Positions 2,215-64,000 of a DNA stretch of 64,000 bases are shown one piece after another (position 1 is the first letter of the stretch; each line of letters begins with the position of its first letter). The notes under the pieces are model-generated. The model searched no databases and was not told the origin of the DNA. It saw only the letters and a list, made by a program, of their open reading frames with translations. The stretch is from positions 27,748-91,747 of the forward strand of contig JACIWX010000006.1 in the NCBI GenBank assembly GCA_014360755.1. The letters run 5' to 3'. The DNA is from Chloroflexota bacterium. GTDB lineage: Bacteria; Chloroflexota; Anaerolineae; UBA2200. Made by a program: the position numbers and the translations under genes.

Positions 2215-4323
2215 TCATTGCCCATCTGCCAAGATGCGCACGGCGCCAAGGATGATTTCGGAACCGATCACTTGGCCTGCTTCGTCCACCACTGGCAGGC
2301 GTGGCAAGCCTTCGGGGGTATGGCGATAGAAACCCAGTTGCAGTTCGTACTCACCTGGAGGGAGCCAGGAGGGGATTTCGATGATGTGGCGGTCTTCGAT
2401 GATTTCTCCAGGACGCCAGGTGTTTGTCGGGCGTGTCTCGTTAGCGGGGATGCCATCGTGCTGAGTATGTGTTTCCCCCTGAGCGACGTGGGCGAAGATG
2501 GTGTACGATTCTTTGATAGGGCTATCGGTGCTCCAGTAGAGGGTCAATTGCATGGTCTCGCCATGGTGGAATGCAAGGCTGTTGACCCGCGCTTCACGCA
2601 GGGTGATGCCGCCCTGCCAGTGAAATGGGGCAGGCAGGGTCACTGCGTCGTTCCACACAAACTGGGCTCCTGGCGATAACTGGATGTGGCGCACGCCCAC
2701 GCCATGGAAGGCAGGCACAGGCAATTCTGTGCCTTGGCTGAGCAAGAGATTGGCGACGATGTGCTGTGGGTCTACTACGTAATCCTGCCAGAGGAGCAGC
2801 CATGCGCCACGCTTCCCAGCCATGATGGGTTGCAACTGGTCAATGAACTGCAGGGTGAGCCGGTGGTCCACGCGCAACAGGGGGTCATTGGGGATAGGGT
2901 AGCGTTCGCAGCCAGGGCAATAGTAATCAAAGATGGGGAACATGTGCCCGGAGATGAGCAGGACTGCTTCATCGGGTGCACGGTGCTCACGGATGTAGCC
3001 AACAGCGGCGCGAAAGTCCGGCCGGCGCAGGTCGGGATTGCAGAAGAGGTTATAATCGGCGTAGACGGAGGTTGCCAGGACAAAGCAGATGGCTATGAAT
3101 GCTGCCAATATGGATATGGGACGCAGTTTGCTACTTCTTTGCTTTGGCACTGAAGTGCCTACTACAAGCCGTTTGGGCACTGAAGTGCCTACTACAAACC
3201 GTTTGGGCACTGAGGTGCCTACAAACCGCGTGAGCGCTGAAGTGCTCGCTACAAACTGGCCCGCGGTTGATGTGAGCTGGACAAGGGCGGCGCTGATGAG
3301 CAGGAGGAAAGCGGGGGAGATGAGCATAGAATGGCGCGGGCTGATGCGCGGCTTGCGCGAGTACAGGAAGGCAATCAGGATAGCAGGTATCAGCAGGCAT
3401 ATCCAGAGAAAAGACAGCGGGGGGATGGTGTGGGATTTCCTACATGCCTGGACAAACTGTAATGCGCTCACGATGAGCAACGCGATATAGCCGAGGGTTA
3501 CATACCAGGAGAGGGGCTCCAGCACGGACTCGCCCACGCTGAGGCTGGTGAACACACGGTACAAAGCGAGCAGGAAGGGCATGGTGGCAGCCCAATAGCC
3601 GGTGTCATATAGGTAACGATTGATGAGGACAGCGCTCCACGGTGCGTAGCCCAGCGCCCAGACGATGAGTACGCTCACGGCTTCGCGCAGGTAGGCTGAC
3701 GGACGTCCAGCCATCCACCACCACACGCCGAAGTAAAGGGCATGCGCGACAAGGACGGGTAGCGCGAAGTAATGCACATAGGCAGCAGCGAGCGAGGTGA
3801 ACAGGTACGTTGCCCACCAGAGGATGCGCCTCTCCCGGGGGCAACGGGCATTGGTGATGCGCAGGAGCAGGTCACTGGAGAGGAGGACAAGGAATGTGGC
3901 GAGGGCGTACATGCGTGTTTCTCGGGAGTAATAGAGACCCAATGGCGAAAGAGTGGCAAGGAAGGTGGCGACAAGGCCGGTTGCCTCGCCTAAAACGTGC
4001 CTGCCTATAAGGTAGATGAGTGGCAATATAGCGATACCAAATAGGGCGGAGAAGGCGCGCACCGCGAAGGCGCTGTCGCCACAAAGGCGGATCCATAGGT
4101 GAAGCAGCAGGTAATAGAGAGGCGGGTGGACATCCTGAGCGGTCCAGGCGATCGCTTTCGCCCAAGATGCTTTTGCCAAAGCAATGCTAAAGCCCTCATC
4201 GTACCACAGGCTTTGGTCTGCCAGGTTGTAGAAACGCAGTATGGTAGCCCAAAGGATGACGGCGATGAACAGCAGACGACTAGCACGTGATTTTTCAAAA
4301 TATTCGATCGTGTGCATATCCAT
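2215..4323 (-). CDS. Family 39 glycosyltransferase (ArnT/PMT-like membrane mannosyltransferase) with a C-terminal soluble domain.
   Basis: 702-aa ORF. The N-terminus FYNLADQSLWYDEGFSIALAK...VHPPLYYLLLHLW is the GT39/GT83 signature. There are more than 10 predicted TM helices followed by a large hydrophilic C-terminal domain. Confidence 0.85.
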   Translation of the reverse strand: MDMHTIEYFEKSRASRLLFIAVILWATILRFYNLADQSLWYDEGFSIALAKASWAKAIAWTAQDVHPPLYYLLLHLWIRLCGDSAFAVRAFSALFGIAILPLIYLIGRHVLGEATGLVATFLATLSPLGLYYSRETRMYALATFLVLLSSDLLLRITNARCPRERRILWWATYLFTSLAAAYVHYFALPVLVAHALYFGVWWWMAGRPSAYLREAVSVLIVWALGYAPWSAVLINRYLYDTGYWAATMPFLLALYRVFTSLSVGESVLEPLSWYVTLGYIALLIVSALQFVQACRKSHTIPPLSFLWICLLIPAILIAFLYSRKPRISPRHSMLISPAFLLLISAALVQLTSTAGQFVASTSALTRFVGTSVPKRFVVGTSVPKRLVVGTSVPKQRSSKLRPISILAAFIAICFVLATSVYADYNLFCNPDLRRPDFRAAVGYIREHRAPDEAVLLISGHMFPIFDYYCPGCERYPIPNDPLLRVDHRLTLQFIDQLQPIMAGKRGAWLLLWQDYVVDPQHIVANLLLSQGTELPVPAFHGVGVRHIQLSPGAQFVWNDAVTLPAPFHWQGGITLREARVNSLAFHHGETMQLTLYWSTDSPIKESYTIFAHVAQGETHTQHDGIPANETRPTNTWRPGEIIEDRHIIEIPSWLPPGEYELQLGFYRHTPEGLPRLPVVDEAGQVIGSEIILGAVRILADGQ
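3148..3259. repeat. In-frame 30-bp tandem repeat inside the GT39 gene, about 3.5 copies, encoding the 10-aa repeat VGTSVPKR(F/L)V.
   Basis: tgaagtgcctactacaagccgtttgggcac (3151-3180) and tgaagtgcctactacaaaccgtttgggcac (3181-3210) are near-identical. Degenerate copies follow at 3211-3259. Confidence 0.7.
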
Positions 4324-18128: not shown

Positions 18129-19019
18129 ATGAAAGGGGGAGGCATGGGCCTGAGTGACATTTTTAACATTGTATGGATTCTGTTCCTGCTGTCTACGTTG
18201 ATGCCAGCGTTGACCCGGCGCGCTATCGAGGCACGGCGGCGCATGGTCATTGATGCCATTGAACGTAAGCGTGGTTCCCGCCTGATTACGCTCATCCACC
18301 GGCAAGAGACGATGAGCCTGCTGGGCATTCCCATTAGTCGCTACATTGACATTGAAGACTCAGAGCAGGTATTGCGTGCCATCCGCTTGACGGCTGATGA
18401 TGTGCCGATAGACATTGTGCTGCACACGCCTGGAGGGCTGGTGCTAGCGGCAGAGCAGATCGCCTGTGCGCTCAGCCGGCATAAAGCGAAGGTTACTGTG
18501 TTTGTGCCACACTATGCCATGTCTGGTGGCACATTGATTGCCCTCGCTGCGGATGAGATTGTGATGGACCCCAATGGCGTGCTAGGCCCAGTGGACCCTC
18601 AATTGCAAATGCCGCAGGGCGGGGGCTATGTCCCGGCGGTCTCTGTGCTGGCTGCGCTCGAAGTGGATAATCCCAACCGCGATGACCAGACCCTTATCAT
18701 GGCTGATATGGCACGCAAAGCAATCCAGCAGGTGCACAATACAGTCTATACCTTGTTGCGCAACAACGGTATGGAGGAAGAAAAGGCGCAAGAGATCGCA
18801 CGGAAACTCAGCGCTGGGTGTTGGACGCACGACTATCCCATTTCCGCGGATGAGGCGCGTGAACTGGGATTGCCTGTTTCCGAGGACATGCCTAAGGAAA
18901 TCTATGCCTTAATGGACTTGTATCCGCAGGCAGGGCAAAGGCGTCCTTCCGTGGAGTTTATTCCGACACCCTATCGCCCTTCGCCAACCCGACCCGGACA
19001 GGGTGAGCCAGGCCGCTAA
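18129..19019 (+). CDS. SDH-family Clp-fold serine protease (S49-like), membrane-anchored.
   Basis: N-terminal TM helix, then ...HTPGGLVLAAEQIA...YAMSGGTLIALAADEIVMDPNGVLGPVDPQ, typical of the serine dehydrogenase proteinase family. Confidence 0.75.
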   Translation: MKGGGMGLSDIFNIVWILFLLSTLMPALTRRAIEARRRMVIDAIERKRGSRLITLIHRQETMSLLGIPISRYIDIEDSEQVLRAIRLTADDVPIDIVLHTPGGLVLAAEQIACALSRHKAKVTVFVPHYAMSGGTLIALAADEIVMDPNGVLGPVDPQLQMPQGGGYVPAVSVLAALEVDNPNRDDQTLIMADMARKAIQQVHNTVYTLLRNNGMEEEKAQEIARKLSAGCWTHDYPISADEARELGLPVSEDMPKEIYALMDLYPQAGQRRPSVEFIPTPYRPSPTRPGQGEPGR

Positions 19020-19792
19020 TGCGTATCCTGGTGATTACCCAAGGTGAATATGGCAAGCGCATGGTGCAGAATTTGCGTGCCCATGCGCCACCAGGATGGG
19101 TGATCGAAGAATGGCTAGCACCGGAGAATTTGCCTCTGGTGATGGATTATCCAGAGGAATATATCCCCGATGTATTGCCACCAGTGGATTTGATCCTTTC
19201 TTTGGGCGAGAACCCGGGTGTGGCTGAGCTCATTCCTGAGATAGCGAAACGCACCGGCGCCCGTGCTGCCATTGTCCCCATTGACCGCAAGGAATGGATG
19301 CCCAAAGGACTGGCACGGCAGTTAGGGCATTGGCTGGAGGACATTGGTGTGACAGCCGTTTTCCCCAAGCCGCTCTGTTCACTAACCGAGACACATTACA
19401 ATGTAGGGCGACACCGTGTGGAATACCATCATGACCTCGTTGCAGAATTCGCCCGTTTCTTTGGCCGTCCTCGCTTTATCCTCACCGTAGATCCATCCAG
19501 CAAGGCTATTGTCGAAGCAAAGGTAGAACGCGATGCGGTGTGTGGCTGCGCACGCCATGTTGCGGCGGGATTGGTTGGAGTGAACGTAGATGAAGCTGAA
19601 TTCCAGGCTGGCATGCTCCATCACCATTATCCCTGTTTAGCGGCGATGGGCATTGATGAGGATTTCGCCGATACCCTGATGCATGTTTCAGGCAATATCG
19701 CGAAAGAGGAAGTGAAAGCACAAATCAAGCCGTATCTTACCATCCAGTACTTTGTGCCACATGGCCGTGTGGAGGAGGGAAGTGATGAGTGA
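19019..19792 (+). CDS. Uncharacterised Cys-rich protein that abuts the upstream protease gene (1-nt TAATG junction), possibly DUF166/COG1810-like.
   Basis: 257-aa ORF starting at a TAATG overlap with the protease stop. It contains CGCARH and HHHYPC motifs. The family assignment is from memory only. Confidence 0.55.
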   Translation: MRILVITQGEYGKRMVQNLRAHAPPGWVIEEWLAPENLPLVMDYPEEYIPDVLPPVDLILSLGENPGVAELIPEIAKRTGARAAIVPIDRKEWMPKGLARQLGHWLEDIGVTAVFPKPLCSLTETHYNVGRHRVEYHHDLVAEFARFFGRPRFILTVDPSSKAIVEAKVERDAVCGCARHVAAGLVGVNVDEAEFQAGMLHHHYPCLAAMGIDEDFADTLMHVSGNIAKEEVKAQIKPYLTIQYFVPHGRVEEGSDE

Positions 19793-19806
19793 TGAGTGAT
19801 GAGTGG
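19781..19806. repeat. Heptanucleotide microsatellite (AGTGATG) of about 3.5 copies at the junction of two convergent gene ends.
   Basis: agtgatgagtgatgagtgatgagtgg. It supplies TGA stops in all three plus-strand frames for the upstream gene and abuts the TAA stop of the minus-strand DedA-like gene. Confidence 0.6.
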
Positions 19807-19807
19807 G

Positions 19808-20488
19808 TTATTTGCTGCCCGTGAGTTTCCAAGCCCATGCTTGGAGTTGATCGCCGTAGAGCAAAAACAATGCCGCGAGGAGGGCAGAGGCGGCGATCAG
19901 CAATGCCCACTGTGTGGTTGTAAAGTTCATGGCGTTGGCTCCCACCCAGCAGGAAACAAAAATACCTGGCAGTCGTCCTGCCATGGCGACCAGTACTAAC
20001 GCTGGGATGGGGATAGGAGACAAGCCAGCTACGAAGCAGGTTAGATCATCGGGCAAGAAGGGTATCAAGAAGACCAGCAGGAAGAAGAAAAGCCCACGGC
20101 GCTGTGCGCCATCGTCCAAGCGTTTCAAGGTAGGCGCAGGGGTCAAGCGCTCCACCAACGGACGTCCGAAAATCCGTGCGAGAAGAAAAGCGATTGCCGA
20201 TCCCAGTGTGGTGCCGGCTATACTGTACACAGTCCCCCAGACAACGCCAAAGAAGTAACCACTGACCAATCCCACTACCTGACCTGGAACAGGCGCCAGG
20301 AGCACTTGAGCCATTTGCAGGAAGACAACCGCGACGGGTTTCCATACTCCCCATTGGCTTACCCAATCGCGCAAGTGTTCTTGGTCTTGGAACAAAGCCC
20401 ATTGGTTTGGCAGGAACAAGGCGAGGAAGAGCACTGCCAGGAGGATGAACAACGCTATCCCAATGTGTATAGATGGATGGGTTTTCAT
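19808..20488 (-). CDS. DedA / TVP38-TMEM64 family membrane protein.
   Basis: 226-aa polytopic protein with ...FLPDDLTCFVAGLS... and the conserved DedA G-rich re-entrant region. Confidence 0.8.
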   Translation of the reverse strand: MKTHPSIHIGIALFILLAVLFLALFLPNQWALFQDQEHLRDWVSQWGVWKPVAVVFLQMAQVLLAPVPGQVVGLVSGYFFGVVWGTVYSIAGTTLGSAIAFLLARIFGRPLVERLTPAPTLKRLDDGAQRRGLFFFLLVFLIPFLPDDLTCFVAGLSPIPIPALVLVAMAGRLPGIFVSCWVGANAMNFTTTQWALLIAASALLAALFLLYGDQLQAWAWKLTGSK

Positions 20489-50279: not shown

Positions 50280-50691
50280 GGGGATGACAGGTCTCGACGG
50301 GGAGGGCTGACTCGAGACTGCAAGCTGAGGTGCCTCCACCTCGTAAAACAGGGGCAAAATACAAGTGCCAACACAGCACGAATGCCGGCGTATGCTTACG
50401 CCATGGCTGCATAAAGCGGACCTAGCGTAAGCAGACGCTTTGGCCACTACGAGTGGCCACGTCCATCCCGCTCTCGCTTCCGGTGGAGTGGGGTCGGGCG
50501 TCATAGGAACCGGAGTGCGGTCGCCCCCATGCTGATAAGGGCGGCCTAAGCCCCTCCAACGAGGGGATCAGCTGGCTCCATGGCAACTCCGTCGGTTGAG
50601 GTGCATGGAGCGAGAACAAAAAGCCGACTAAGCTTGTAGGATGTCTCCAGTCGAACTCTTCGGACGCGGGTTCGATTCCCGCCATCTCCAC
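50280..50691 (+). ncRNA. ssrA: tmRNA (transfer-messenger RNA).
   Basis: 5' GGGGATGACAGGTCTCGACGGGG, a typical tmRNA 5' end. 3' GGACGCGGGTTCGATTCCCGCCATCTCCA, a T-arm plus a 7-bp acceptor stem complementary to the 5' end. Internal tag ORF GCC AAC ACA ... GCT GCA TAA encodes ANTARMPAYAYAMAA. The gene lies immediately downstream of smpB. Confidence 0.85.
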
Positions 50692-50707
50692 TGTTTGGTG
50701 TGGAGCG

Positions 50708-57812: not shown

Positions 57813-58448
57813 TCAGTGTTTCAATGCCCTGAAGCCTAAGAAATCACCCAATCTGCGCCACAGCGAGAGCACGCCGCTTTGGCGCAGCCGGCTCATGCGC
57901 TGGCCCCATGCCTCTGGCGGGCCAAAGCCCTCCCAGTGGACGACCTGTTCCAGAGGCAAACGCGGCGTAGGCTGTTGCTCTGGAGGCACCGGATAGCCCA
58001 TAGTGATCAGTGCGATGACGCGCATGCCATCAGGCAAGCCCAGGGCTGCTGCAGCCTGCTCTTCATCGAACGCGCCAATCCAGCACGTCCCCAAGCCCAG
58101 CGCCTTGGCAGCCAGCATTAGGTTCTGACCAGCCAAGCAGCAATCGTGTACATACCAGCTACTGCGCCGTTCATCACCGCACAAGGCGATGAGCACCGGT
58201 GCCTGCGCTACATGGCGTGGCACCACGCCCATGATGCGCGTGGACTGAGCCAACGCTGCTCGGCGCTCGGGCTGCGTTACTACGACAAAATGCCATGGCT
58301 GACGGTTGACCGCGCTCGGCGCCCAGCGTGCGGAATCCAGCACACGCAAAATCAGCTCACGTGGCACAGCATCCGCCCGGTATTGCCGCACCGAGCGACG
58401 CTCACGGATGGTCATTTCCACTGGTGTGAGATTTTGTTCATCGGACAT
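57813..58448 (-). CDS. Nitroreductase-family protein.
   Basis: RRSVRQYRADAVPRELI...APSAVNRQPWHFVVV is the FMN-dependent nitroreductase fold signature. Confidence 0.85.
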   Translation of the reverse strand: MSDEQNLTPVEMTIRERRSVRQYRADAVPRELILRVLDSARWAPSAVNRQPWHFVVVTQPERRAALAQSTRIMGVVPRHVAQAPVLIALCGDERRSSWYVHDCCLAGQNLMLAAKALGLGTCWIGAFDEEQAAAALGLPDGMRVIALITMGYPVPPEQQPTPRLPLEQVVHWEGFGPPEAWGQRMSRLRQSGVLSLWRRLGDFLGFRALKH

Positions 58449-58465
58449 GGAAGGGCCTCCTGCTT

Positions 58466-58521
58466 CGTATTACGTATTACGTATTACGTATTACGTATTA
58501 CGTATTACGTATTACGTATTG
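58466..58521. repeat. Heptanucleotide microsatellite (CGTATTA) of 7 perfect copies plus 1 variant, in a divergent promoter region.
   Basis: cgtatta repeated from 58466 to 58514, then cgtattg. It sits 18-75 nt upstream of the nitroreductase ATG and about 130-185 nt upstream of the metY-like ATG. Confidence 0.8.
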
Positions 58522-58649
58522 CGTGTTTCGTGATATGCCTTGTGACTTCATTTTACCCAGGAATTCCGGTAGAGGGAAGGCTTTGCTTTTCTATGATATT
58601 GCGCTATACTATGGGCTAGCAATGTCAACTACTTGCCAGGAGGTAACCG

Positions 58650-59849
58650 ATGGACAAGGTCAGCTTGGCAACGCTGGCCGTGCACGCTGGTGAGCGGCTC
58701 AGTGTTCCTGATTACACGCCAATATCCACGCCGATACACCATGCTGTAACCTATATCTACGACGACATGCACACCTTGGATGCTGTTTTCGCTGGCAAAC
58801 GCCCCGGCTACGTCTATAGCCGCTTTGCCAACCCCACCGTAACCGCCTTGGAAGAAGCAGTTGCGCACATGGAAGGGACAGAATCTGCGGTGGCTTGCGC
58901 TTCAGGCATGGCAGCCGTGCATTTAGCGCTGTTGGCTGCAGGAGCGACTGCTGGCAAAGCGGTGCTCATGGCGCAGGACCTCTATGGGGGTACATACTCC
59001 CTGCTAACGCAGATATTCCCAACGCAGGGAGTGCACGTCCATAGTGTGGACATGACTGACCTCGGTGCTGTCTCCCAAGCCATTGCCGAAACGAAACCTA
59101 TTGCCCTGTTCGTAGAGACCATTTCTAATCCCCTGCTCAAAGTCGTTGACATCCCCGCCCTGGCTAAGCTAGCCCATGATGGCGGAGCCCAACTCATCGT
59201 GGACAATACCTTTGCCACTCCTTGCCTCTATCGCCCCGCATTGAACGGTGCGGATTATGTCGTGTACAGCGCAACGAAATACCTCAGTGGCCATGGTGAC
59301 GCGATGGGCGGACTCGTTGCCGCCTCTGCAGAACGATGCCAGGCAATACGTGAGAAGCGAAAACTGCTGGGGAGCATATTGGGACCCAACGAAGCCTGGC
59401 TCATCCTACGGGGCTTGAAAACCCTCGTCCTGCGCATGCGTCAACACAGCCAGAATGCCAACTTGGTTGCGCACTTCCTACAATCGCACCCCCGCATCAG
59501 CCAGGTGTTCTATCCCAGCCTACCGACCCACCCTCAGTTCGCCCTCAGCCGCCGTTTGTTCCCCTGCAACCTGTTCGGGGGCATGGTTTCCTTCCGGATC
59601 AAGGGGGCAGACCAGGAGAAGGTGTTCCGCTTCATGGATGCCCTACGGGTCATCGTTCCTGCCACCAGCCTGGGCGATGTCTACAGCCTCGTCCTCTACC
59701 CTGCCCACTCCTCGCACCGCTGGCTGAGCGATGAGGAGAAACAGCGTCAGGGCATTACCCCCGACTTGGTGCGCCTGTCCGTAGGCATCGAGGAAGCGCA
59801 AGACATCATCGCTGACCTCGCCCAAGCACTGGATGCCATCGGTGAATAG
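58650..59849 (+). CDS. Cys/Met-metabolism PLP-dependent enzyme (O-acetylhomoserine sulfhydrylase / cystathionine gamma-synthase family).
   Basis: 399 aa with the PLP-lysine motif YSATKYLSGHGD and the family's N-terminal pattern (HAGE..PISTPIHHAVTY). Confidence 0.85.
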   Translation: MDKVSLATLAVHAGERLSVPDYTPISTPIHHAVTYIYDDMHTLDAVFAGKRPGYVYSRFANPTVTALEEAVAHMEGTESAVACASGMAAVHLALLAAGATAGKAVLMAQDLYGGTYSLLTQIFPTQGVHVHSVDMTDLGAVSQAIAETKPIALFVETISNPLLKVVDIPALAKLAHDGGAQLIVDNTFATPCLYRPALNGADYVVYSATKYLSGHGDAMGGLVAASAERCQAIREKRKLLGSILGPNEAWLILRGLKTLVLRMRQHSQNANLVAHFLQSHPRISQVFYPSLPTHPQFALSRRLFPCNLFGGMVSFRIKGADQEKVFRFMDALRVIVPATSLGDVYSLVLYPAHSSHRWLSDEEKQRQGITPDLVRLSVGIEEAQDIIADLAQALDAIGE

Positions 59850-59897
59850 GAACGGCGCATGCAAGGCAACAAGCCATCTGCGAGGCGCAGGGAGAGC

Positions 59898-60704
59898 ATG
59901 GGAAAACCAGAAGAGATTCTGGTGCTGATACGAGGAGGCGGTGACCTGGGCTCAGGAGTCGCTCACCGACTCCACCGGGCGGGTTTCAAAGTGGTCATCC
60001 TGGAATTGCTGCAGCCCTTGGTCATCCGACGCACTGTCTCCTTTGCTTCTGCCGTGTACGAAGGGCACATCACAGTGGAAGGAGTGGAAGCAAGGCTGGT
60101 CCATGACAGCGCAGAGATCGAGGATCTGCTAGCCCAGGGCATTGTGCCGGTCATCGTTGACCCCGAGGGGGCAAGCATCCCCTTCCTGAAGCCAGAGGTC
60201 ATCGTAGATGCCCGCATGGCGAAGCGTAATTTGGGAACCACCATCACCGATGCGCCCATCGTCATCGGGCTAGGACCTGGCTTCACCGCCGGACAGGATG
60301 TGCACGCCGTCATCGAGACTGCGCGTGGCCATAACCTGGGCCGCGTGATCCTCCGAGGCAGCGCAGAAGCAGACACCCATATCCCCGGCTTGGTACAAGG
60401 CTACGGGCGCGAGCGGGTGCTGTGGGCACCATGCGCTGGGCTTTTCCATGGCTTGCTGCATATCGGGGAGCGGGTCGAAGCAGGGCAGGCAGTTGCCTAT
60501 GTCGCGGATCAGCCGGTATTGGCAAGCATATCCGGTGTCTTGCGCGGAATATTGCACGACAACGTCCCTGTGCGTGAGGGTCAAAAGGTTGGCGACGTAG
60601 ACCCACGGGGAGTTGCGGAGTACTGCTTTACCATCTCGGACAAGTCTCGCGCCATCGGCGGAGGCGTCCTGGAAGCCATTTTATACTTGCTTCGCAAGCG
60701 ATAA
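59898..60704 (+). CDS. YqeB-type selenium-dependent molybdenum hydroxylase accessory protein (XdhC-like Rossmann protein).
   Basis: ILVLIRGGGDLGSGVAHRLHRAGFKVVILE...ETARGHNLGRVI resembles the EF2563/YqeB family. Assignment from memory. Confidence 0.7.
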   Translation: MGKPEEILVLIRGGGDLGSGVAHRLHRAGFKVVILELLQPLVIRRTVSFASAVYEGHITVEGVEARLVHDSAEIEDLLAQGIVPVIVDPEGASIPFLKPEVIVDARMAKRNLGTTITDAPIVIGLGPGFTAGQDVHAVIETARGHNLGRVILRGSAEADTHIPGLVQGYGRERVLWAPCAGLFHGLLHIGERVEAGQAVAYVADQPVLASISGVLRGILHDNVPVREGQKVGDVDPRGVAEYCFTISDKSRAIGGGVLEAILYLLRKR

Positions 60705-60742
60705 CCTATATCCGCTAATCTTTGCGGGAAAGGGGTGTAGAA

Positions 60743-61618
60743 ATGATCTGTGAGGAATATATCCTAGCCTCCACGGTGGAGGAAGCGCTCGCCGCCTTAG
60801 CTTCCCTGCGTGGCGAAGGGCGCCTGATTGCGGGCGGCACTGACCTTATGCTACAATTACAGCGCGGTGAACGGAGCGTCCGTTGTCTAGTAGACATCAC
60901 GCGCATACCGGGCATAGATGAGATCAAATTAGAGGATTCGTATATCATCATCGGCGCTGCAACAACCTTTGCCCAAATTGAGCGTTCCTCCCTCATTCGC
61001 CAGCGCGCGCCGGTTCTGGCTGAAGCGGCATCCTGGGTGGGTTCTCCCCAGATCCGCAACGTGGGTACCTTGGCAGGCAATGTGGTCAACGCCCAACCGG
61101 CGGCTGATGGGTCCATCGCCCTGCTTACACTAGACGCAGAGGCGGAAATCGCCAACCTGACCGGCCGCCAGTGGGTGCCCGTAGCGAGTCTGTTTGTGAG
61201 CCCTGGCGTCTCCCGCGTAGATGCCAGTGCAGAGATGATCACCGCCTTCCGCTTTCGCGCTCACGGCCCACGAGAATCCTCCGCATTCGAGAGACAAGCC
61301 CGCCGCAAGGCTTTGTCCTTGCCCATCATCAACGTTGGAGTGCGTGTGCTATTGAATGCAGAAGGCACCCATGTGCGAGATGTGCGCATTTGCATTGGTC
61401 CAGTGGCGCCAGTGCCGTTCCGGGCGCAACAAGCGGAGGCTGCACTCAGAAACCGCGCTATTGACGAAGACGCCATCACCGAAGCGGTGGAAGCCGCTGT
61501 GCTGGAGAGCAAACCCCGCTCCAGCCTGCTCCGCGCGGGCAAAGAATACCGCCGAGAACTCATCCGTGTGTTGACCAGACGCGCTCTGCTCAGAGCGATA
61601 GCTGCTGCAAGGGGATAG
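60743..61618 (+). CDS. Molybdenum hydroxylase FAD-binding (medium) subunit (CoxM/XdhB-like).
   Basis: RLIAGGTDLMLQLQ... and the FAD-binding PCMH-type domain pattern, with the CO-dehydrogenase flavoprotein C-terminal region. Confidence 0.85.
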   Translation: MICEEYILASTVEEALAALASLRGEGRLIAGGTDLMLQLQRGERSVRCLVDITRIPGIDEIKLEDSYIIIGAATTFAQIERSSLIRQRAPVLAEAASWVGSPQIRNVGTLAGNVVNAQPAADGSIALLTLDAEAEIANLTGRQWVPVASLFVSPGVSRVDASAEMITAFRFRAHGPRESSAFERQARRKALSLPIINVGVRVLLNAEGTHVRDVRICIGPVAPVPFRAQQAEAALRNRAIDEDAITEAVEAAVLESKPRSSLLRAGKEYRRELIRVLTRRALLRAIAAARG

Positions 61619-63422: not shown

Positions 63423-63690
63423 TGGGTTTGCTCCTTTCGCACTGTAAACGTTTCTAACATAATCATAACACATCAGAGCGAAAACGCAAACCTCCGGATG
63501 GTTTCACCACAGAACGCACAGAGGACACAGAGGGGCCAGTTTTTGGAGAGAGTTGCACCCAAGGCCGAGCACTGTCAACGGATGCAGGGAGCGGATGACA
63601 CGGATTTACCTTTGAGGTAGCATCCCTCACGAGTGCCTGCCCATCCGTTCAATCCGATCCAGAAATCCGCTGACAGGCGCACTCCAACAA

Positions 63691-63870
63691 AGAGTGATTC
63701 AAGGGTTAACGCCCTTCCTCTCAAAAAGAGTTTGTAGTGAGCGCTTCAGCGCTCATCACTAATAGAGAATGATTCAGGGGTTAACGTCCTTCCTCTCAAA
63801 AAGAGTTTGTAGTGAGCGCTTTAGCGCTCATGACTAACAGAGAGTAATTCAGGGGTTAACATCCTTCCTC
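63691..63870. repeat. 73-bp tandem repeat of about 2.4 units, each carrying two hairpins.
   Basis: Units start near 63691, 63764 and 63838 (partial). Each contains AGGGGTTAACGYCCTTCCTCT and the hairpin GTGAGCGCT-tyA-GCGCTCAT. The last partial unit overlaps the stop codon of the partial minus-strand gene at the right edge. Confidence 0.7.
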
Positions 63871-64000
63871 TTCCAGCAAGGCTTTGGCACGGGCAATTTG
63901 GAGGCGTACAGCGGCCGGCGCAGTGCCGCCGAGGACATTGCGCCGCTCCACGGCGCGATGGTAGTCAAAGACAGCGTAGAGGTCTTCCGCAAAAGCAGGA
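63856..64000 (-). CDS. C-terminal end of an unidentified gene. The 5' part lies beyond the window.
   Basis: The reverse strand reads ...PAFAEDLYAVFDYHRAVERRNVLGGTAPAAVRLQIARAKALLEEEGC* with a TAA at 63856-63858. It is stop-free to the window end. No family recognised. Confidence 0.35.
   Translation of the reverse strand, partial: PAFAEDLYAVFDYHRAVERRNVLGGTAPAAVRLQIARAKALLEEEGC

Follow-up and report, generated by a model that had tools for sequence, protein, structure and literature searches.

A heptanucleotide unit is repeated head-to-tail between two divergent genes of an uncultured, Anaerolineae-like Chloroflexota bacterium, directly in front of a gene of the nitroreductase family. Is this tract a switch of gene expression, a series of sites read by a regulator, an artefact of assembly, or a product of slippage with little or no consequence? 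We address this question using the 64-kb stretch of DNA in which the tract lies (the whole of this stretch is referred to as the window), the orthologous sites of related genomes, and the occurrences of the same unit in other environmental genomes.

A perfect heptanucleotide tract between two divergent genes

Direct reading of the sequence gives (CGTATTA)x7 with zero mismatches on the plus strand at 58466-58514; read in the direction of the nitroreductase gene, this is (TAATACG)x7, or (UAAUACG)n in the RNA. This core is followed by units that decay progressively: CGTATTG (58515-58521), CGTGTTT (58522-58528), and CGTGATA (58529-58535). The initial annotation of this DNA had reported the coordinates of the tract, a copy count of seven plus one variant unit, and a tract beginning 18 nt from the ATG of the nitroreductase gene, all of which are correct. 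The features of the region are the following:

57813-58448, minus strand: nitroreductase-family gene, 211 aa, PF00881; the CAT of its start codon is at 58446-58448
58456-58461, minus strand: Shine-Dalgarno sequence AGGAGG of the nitroreductase gene, separated from the last unit by 4 nt and from the ATG by 7 nt; kept in L003 and L129-L131
58466-58514, minus strand (nitroreductase sense TAATACG): perfect core (CGTATTA)x7, supported by the sequence itself, Tandem Repeats Finder, shuffles, and a period scan
58515-58535, minus strand: decayed units at the promoter-proximal end, in the sense orientation CAATACG, AAACACG, and TATCACG; CAATACG and AACACG units also occur in relatives
58550-58555, minus strand: predicted -10 hexamer TAAAAT of the nitroreductase gene, proposed from the alignment; TAAAAT or TAGAAT in four relatives
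58573-58578, minus strand: predicted -35 hexamer TTCCCT of the nitroreductase gene, 17 nt upstream of the -10; TTCCCG or TTCTCA in relatives
58583-58610, plus strand: predicted promoter of the PLP-enzyme gene, TTGCTT-16-TATACT; conserved in relatives and back-to-back with the nitroreductase -35
58650-59849, plus strand: divergent gene for a PLP-dependent enzyme of Cys/Met metabolism (PF01053, "metY-like"), which heads a gene cluster

Tandem Repeats Finder described the tract as a repeat of period 7 with 8.4 copies, 98% matches, and a score of 111. It is the only array of its kind in the window. Indeed, a two-unit probe with up to two mismatches allowed gave 13 overlapping matches, every one of them within the tract, where 0.07 were expected from 100 dinucleotide-preserving shuffles, and a scan of periods 4-12 over the 64 kb found no second array of about four units. 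With its 7-nt unit, the tract is a long simple sequence repeat as defined by Mrazek et al. (2007) (a unit of 1-11 nt, repeated head-to-tail over a length greater than expected by chance). The description of this site as a genuine long heptamer microsatellite, located in a divergent intergenic region and adjoining the nitroreductase start codon, is thereby upheld.

The window has a few other repeats. One is a second, short heptamer array: the sole other perfect repeat of at least three units with a period of 5-12 in the 64 kb is AGTGATG x3 at 19781; this perfect repeat (x3.6, 19781-19805) lies at the junction of two convergent open reading frames, 19019-19792 (plus strand) and 19808-20488 (minus strand), and the stop codon of the former falls within it. 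A tandem repeat with a period of 30 (also 57), about 3.8 copies, and 83-95% matches is found at 3146-3256, with the palindrome GGCACTGAAGTGCC in each unit. At the edge of the window, a 75-nt tandem repeat (63686-63871; 2.5 copies, 90% matches) contains the GC-rich inverted repeat AGTGAGCGCTTCAGCGCTCATCACT in each of its units.

The tract was also found in two independent Logan assemblies (k=31), from runs SRR11866724 and SRR11866725, that encode a PLP-enzyme protein identical to that of the window. Each has 30 nt or more of perfect tract adjoining an identical right flank, and the two contigs stop at one and the same base within the tract, a break that implies an uninterrupted run of 38 nt or more. 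These breaks confirm that the long allele is real, and the same breaks hide its exact length; the count of seven units could be off by one unit. Together with the shorter version that is present at the same site in sister strains (see below), the Logan contigs establish that the tract is not an assembly artefact.

The flanking genes

The public records for this locus are MBC7233487.1 and MBC7233488.1, and the nearest named homologues of the proteins are from Chloroflexota/Anaerolineae metagenome-assembled genomes (MAGs). In MBC7233487.1 (200 aa), the nitroreductase is given a start that lies 11 codons past the ATG at 58448. This annotated form is probably too short, as the 211-aa form has an AGGAGG 7 nt upstream and an N-terminus that is conserved in relatives. 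No public record of the exact 211-aa protein was found, because the public annotation takes the later start. The synteny of the PLP-enzyme gene, the divergent nitroreductase gene, and uvrA downstream of the latter is kept in relatives.

The divergent gene had been labeled "metY-like". Its assignment to the Cys/Met-metabolism PLP-dependent enzymes (PF01053) holds, but the more specific part of the label is only approximate, since the protein reaches the cut-off of no NCBIfam equivalog and the models for cystathionine gamma-synthase and methionine gamma-lyase score at least as high on it as those for O-acetylhomoserine sulfhydrylase. The cluster that it heads (58650-61618, plus strand) continues with YqeB (TIGR03309, above the cut-off), which is involved in the maturation of the selenium-dependent molybdenum cofactor, and with xanthine-dehydrogenase-type FAD and 2Fe-2S subunits, that is, subunits of molybdenum hydroxylases. 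Given this context, the role of the PLP enzyme may be other than methionine biosynthesis.

The tract lies in the predicted leader of the nitroreductase mRNA

The spacer between the divergent genes is 201 bp long in the window. Read in the nitroreductase sense, it is composed of TTCCCT-17-TAAAAT, about 22 nt, the decayed units TATCACG, AAACACG, and CAATACG, the (TAATACG)x7 core, AAGC, AGGAGG, 7 nt, and the ATG. In an alignment with five orthologous spacers, the -10 and -35-like hexamers of the nitroreductase gene are kept in the window, L129, L131, L133, and L004, and so is the TTGCTT-16-TATACT pair of the opposite gene. A consensus scan added one further candidate on the minus strand, TTGCTA-18-TATCAT (58622-58593), the -10 of which is not conserved in the aligned relatives.

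The tract is downstream of the conserved predicted -10 as well as of the scan candidate at 58593-58622, so that with either promoter it would be part of the transcribed 5' leader. Judging from the promoter-like hexamers that are conserved ahead of the tract, transcription would start near 58543 (minus strand), and the tract would span positions ~+22 to ~+77 of the nitroreductase mRNA. On the opposite side, the predicted -35 of the PLP-enzyme gene (TTGCTT, 58583-58588) is ~60 bp or more away, with the tract upstream of it. A phase-variable repeat would be expected in a reading frame or between a -35 and a -10 hexamer, and the tract is in neither a frame nor the spacer of either predicted promoter.

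This placement separates the two mechanisms that the initial annotation had put forward. A change of promoter spacing by gain or loss of units does not fit a tract that is downstream of the conserved -35/-10 pair and outside the promoter of the other gene. A change in the length of the untranslated region is still possible: units gained or lost would alter the leader in 7-nt steps, as follows from the predicted location.

Some other elements were considered for this region and rejected. A promoter inside the tract is not supported, as no hexamer pair passes the scan and TAATAC and CGTAAT are poor matches to a -10. Nor is there an intrinsic terminator or attenuator, as no terminator-like site was detected in the region and no T-run follows the hairpin. 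Searched with the Rfam gathering thresholds, the window contains only a tmRNA gene (50280-50693, plus strand; RF00023, 161.7 bits) and no known RNA element at the tract. A permissive Rfam search of 58350-58750 returned only a meaningless match to mir-70 (E = 0.22, far below threshold), and no riboswitch before the PLP-enzyme gene.

Hairpin potential and access to the ribosome-binding site

The unit TAATACG equals TACGTA plus one A, and the array is nearly its own reverse complement, with two mismatches per 14 nt in its minus-strand self-matches. Because the unit consists of this palindrome and one additional base, both DNA strands and the RNA are able to fold on themselves. The fold of the tract DNA has a z-score of -5.1. 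The leader RNA is predicted to fold with -28.6 kcal/mol (z = -3.65) and to contain a core hairpin of ~21 pairs interrupted by single mismatches; by comparison, the leader folds are far weaker in two five-unit alleles (z = -0.6 and -2.2) and in a tract-less relative (z = +0.5).

When leaders with 0-12 units were modelled, predicted stability increased with copy number by ~3.7 kcal/mol per unit, and the pairing probabilities of the AGGAGG (0.61-0.65) and of the AUG (0.75-0.80) stayed flat. In every allele, the predicted partner of the AGGAGG is the CCUUCC directly before the AUG. This small hairpin at the ribosome-binding site, at 58449-58461 (minus strand) and at the same position in L129, L131, and L004, is independent of repeat number. 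The idea that the repeat hairpin masks the ribosome-binding site was therefore rejected in silico, the pairing probability being unchanged across 0-12 units. As access to this site is predicted to be flat across copy number, any effect of the tract would be on the stability or processing of the mRNA (for example, through RNase III acting on a long duplex) and not on ribosome access.

Unit number differs between lineages at the orthologous site

The alleles at the orthologous leader site range from eight units in the window, through five in L003 and L129-L131, to none in L133 and L004-L006. The window allele is CAATACG followed by (TAATACG)x7, that is, eight units of which seven are perfect. 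The four members of the sister lineage, from four samples, are 96% identical to the window at the nucleotide level in the gene and 98-99% identical among themselves; they have exactly five imperfect units, in three versions that differ by point variants. Aligning the window with the sister lineage leaves a gap of 22 columns, corresponding to three units plus 1 nt. L133 (86% protein identity) has no tract, and AATACGA AACACGC GACACTC stands at the site. L004-L006 (83% protein identity) are essentially devoid of units, and their spacer measures 155 bp, against the 201 bp of the window. In the more distant L009 (74% amino acid identity), the leader site contains only the degenerate 7-periodic AACACGC AGCACGA AACACGT. 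These last units belong to a pair of opposed degenerate 7-periodic arrays at 1420-1500 of L009 (GCGTGGT GCGTATT GCGTGTG GCGTATT ... AACACGC AGCACGA AACACGT), and such opposed arrays could potentially form a hairpin from the two orientations of one unit family.

The series resembles the textbook life cycle of a microsatellite, and would suggest that a proto-repeat expanded and was then homogenized in one lineage. A check of copy number across relatives had been proposed as a test of tract mutability, and its outcome is divided: the number of units differs between lineages (8/5/0) but is constant at five in the four sister assemblies, among which no length variation was seen. The five-unit alleles differ in sequence. 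Between L129 and L131, at leader positions 130-165, 3 substitutions are found in the 35 nt of the tract and 1 in the 150 nt of the rest of the spacer (Fisher p = 0.02). Substitutions clustered in a tract with a unit number fixed at five could reflect turnover of units under a constraint on length, or may reflect relaxed constraint. A search of JGI metagenomes with a probe consisting of a conserved 20-mer of the flank yielded one already-known contig and one chance match, and thus no further alleles.

The same unit recurs in leaders of distant phyla

The exact 21-mer formed by three units was found in at least 119 stretches of species-representative environmental genomes, where we estimate that fewer than one would be expected by chance; the window locus itself is absent from the listed loci. 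The matches listed include Chloroflexota (~28 loci), Planctomycetota, Acidobacteria, Acidimicrobiia, Poribacteria, Desulfococcaceae, Bacteroidota, Patescibacteria, and others. Some of the MAGs among them contain many tracts, such as the 15 of Planctomycetota casp150-mb.279 and the 10 of Acidobacteria B3T1L10. Tract size among the matches listed is 3-7.6 units, and 97 of the 121 tracts are outside long open reading frames according to crude calling. Seven units are reached by only 3 of these 121 tracts, which places the seven perfect units of the window in the upper tail.

Among the matches listed, the tracts are frequently flanked by arrays of other heptamers with a TACG or ACG core (CATTACG, GTTACGG, TCACGAA). 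In the 848 kb around these matches, we counted 196 period-7 arrays, 72 of which are not CGTATTA, vs 1, 3, 4, and 0 arrays of periods 5, 6, 8, and 9, respectively. According to Mrazek et al. (2007), as summarized in PMC4679880 and PMC4692102, heptanucleotides are the most abundant class of long simple repeats in most bacterial genomes, and polymerase slippage has been proposed as their cause. The initial annotation had called heptamer tracts of this length rare in free-living bacteria. This literature and our own count of at least 119 sites for the exact unit contradict the claim of rarity; seven perfect units are nevertheless long.

The orientation of the tracts was then compared with that of the downstream genes, using crude calls of open reading frames. 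Among the matches listed and over all phyla, the TAATACG sense occurs 36 times within 200 nt upstream of an open reading frame start and the reverse orientation 20 times (p = 0.04), a modest bias. For the Chloroflexota among these matches, the corresponding numbers are ~16-19 vs 5-9 within ~100 nt upstream of a start, a possible bias that hints at more than neutral slippage. As in the window, the (N)AATACG arrays of Chloroflexota tend to run in the sense of a gene whose ribosome-binding site and start codon follow 12-100 nt downstream; examples are L017, L037, L056, L081, L098, L108, L110, L118, and L121. Our literature search found no paper on the TAATACG/CGTATTA unit or on its recurrence in leaders across phyla.

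Origin and likely effect of the tract

Taken as a whole, the tract is probably a young, slippage-generated heptamer microsatellite in the leader of the nitroreductase gene, one that is prone to expansion, is probably unstable in length, and has either no effect on expression or a graded one. It would have arisen by slipped-strand mispairing from an older, degenerate 7-periodic proto-repeat, "NAAYACG", in the 5' leader. It would be transcribed as (UAAUACG)n, ending 4 nt before the ribosome-binding site, and both DNA strands as well as the RNA could fold into a long hairpin in which blocks of 6 bp are parted by single mismatches. Such folding may stabilize slipped intermediates and thus favor expansion. 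The uninterrupted run of seven units would in turn make the length unstable, each unit contributing 7 nt of leader and ~3.7 kcal/mol of predicted stability. The likeliest consequence of a change in unit number would be none, or a graded effect on the stability or processing of the mRNA; an on/off switch or a change of promoter geometry is unlikely. The tract is thus probably neutral or a mild modulator of expression, neutrality being the default reading.

A contingency locus, in which selection maintains the tract as a hypermutable switch and changes in unit number heritably and reversibly alter how strongly one or both of the two flanking genes are expressed, appears unlikely to us. The seven uninterrupted units, the difference in length between lineages, and the 4-nt distance to the ribosome-binding site are what such a switch would show, and there are precedents in leaders: the ATCTTTC heptamer of hmw1A in Haemophilus influenzae (PMC12721329) and the AGAT repeats of uspA2 in Moraxella (cited in PMC4679880). 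However, the tract is outside the -35/-10 spacers of both predicted promoters, copy numbers from 0 to 12 make no difference to how far the start codon and ribosome-binding site are predicted to be paired, and the four sister assemblies show no variation in length. Moreover, close relatives (L004-L006 and L133) do without a tract, it is the sole such tract in 64 kb, and the gene encodes a member of a cytoplasmic flavoenzyme family and not a surface or restriction-modification function.

We regard as similarly doubtful that the tract is a repeated binding site, with (N)AAUACG units at 7-nt spacing being read by an RNA- or DNA-binding regulator in a leader system like that proposed for the TAACTGA repeats. 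In a wider form of this reading, which is also improbable, (N)AATACG arrays would be a recurrent leader element of Chloroflexota and possibly of other phyla, placed preferentially in sense shortly before the ribosome-binding site and read by an RNA-binding factor or RNase III; they would correspond to the network proposed for TAACTGA, with the window tract as an expanded member. Such a role would account for the unit CGTATTA being found at its many sites in many phyla, with several per genome in some MAGs, for the sense bias upstream of starts seen among the matches listed, and for the persistence of degenerate "ACG + 4" 7-periodic units in leaders of relatives without a perfect tract (L009 and L133). 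The analogy with the TAACTGA repeats of Beggiatoaceae (PMC4679880) points in the same direction. Yet the orientation bias is modest and comes from crude gene calls, the relative with 83% identity is essentially without units, and both the copy number and the sequence of the units drift freely between strains. Furthermore, a canonical AGGAGG is present, unlike in the TAACTGA case, the 64-kb window has one tract only, and no candidate binding protein was found. The recurrence across phyla, the share of Chloroflexota, and the orientation bias are compatible with a leader element and also with a mutational bias of a hairpin-forming unit.

Finally, it is very improbable that the repeat number, or the whole repeat, is unreal: short-read assemblers do break or collapse tandem repeats, and this one interrupts the Logan contigs, but the same right flank follows the perfect tract in both independent assemblies, the five-unit version is present at the site in sister strains from ENA and JGI assemblies, and a tract of 56-70 nt is spanned by ordinary 150-nt reads. 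These three alternatives and the slippage-generated microsatellite take up most of the probability, and we leave the small remainder to explanations not listed here.

By itself, the microsatellite is an ordinary, if unusually long, environmental heptamer repeat and matters little. The leaders with 0, 5, and 8 units that occur naturally at this orthologous position could be used to examine the effects of repeats on expression outside pathogens. The recurrence of one quasi-palindromic heptamer in the leaders of Chloroflexota and other phyla is perhaps worth more than the tract itself, as it bears on the question of why 7-nt units are favored as long bacterial repeats and whether they are functional.

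Comparison with known systems

In the hifA/hifB system, phase variation of divergent promoters is due to TA repeats placed within the promoter spacer, where they alter the distance from the -35 to the -10 hexamer. The window tract is likewise a simple repeat in a divergent intergenic region, but it is outside both predicted promoters.

The (ATCTTTC)n repeats of hmw1A/hmw2A resemble it in several respects. They also have a 7-nt unit located in a leader upstream of the ribosome-binding site, as predicted for the window. They are part of a long RNA hairpin the length of which is set by copy number; a long double-stranded hairpin of this type is predicted for the window RNA too. The hmw1A leader repeat controls expression through its hairpin and RNase III (PMC12721329). 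That processing and a graded effect on expression were demonstrated for hmw (PMC12721329), whereas the window tract is known from its sequence and from predictions. Membership in the hmw type would further imply cleavage by RNase III and expression that falls as the number of units rises. In addition, the hmw repeat pairs with a separate G-rich arm and the window repeat is predicted to pair with itself, hmw alleles have at least 11 units in nature vs 7-8 in the window, and the window gene encodes a metabolic enzyme in a non-pathogen.

The TAACTGA repeats of marine Beggiatoaceae, cyanobacteria, and Bacteroidetes (PMC4679880) offer a parallel for the distribution of the unit: one heptamer is common to distant phyla with no evident mechanism of transfer, its arrays are short (usually 2-6 copies), mostly intergenic, and often in the forward orientation just upstream of starts, and the sense unit begins with TAA. 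In genes that have no canonical ribosome-binding site, TAACTGA arrays overlap the place where one would be expected, whereas the window array does not replace this site; its orientation and proximity to the start fit the comparison, and a strong AGGAGG stands between the tract and the ATG. The Beggiatoa genome has 169 sets of TAACTGA repeats, vs one CGTATTA tract within the 64-kb window.

The window tract also resembles the heptamers of the class surveyed by Mrazek et al. (2007). Other members are the GGGAATC of Xanthomonas, the GGGGA(T/C)T of Nostoc, and tandem heptanucleotide repeats of Calothrix (as summarized in PMC4679880 and PMC4692102). Like these, the window tract is an intergenic array of 7-nt units, perfect and head-to-tail, in an environmental bacterium, and 7-nt units far outnumber those of other sizes in the genomes carrying CGTATTA, among the matches listed. 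The GGGAATC arrays of Xanthomonas vary in both length and sequence among close relatives at the same intergenic sites (PMC4692102), and so do the alleles of the nitroreductase leader. The unit in the window differs in being AT-rich and quasi-palindromic, and not G-rich or quadruplex-forming. The tract is a further example of this known class, the heptanucleotide repeats of bacterial intergenic and leader regions.
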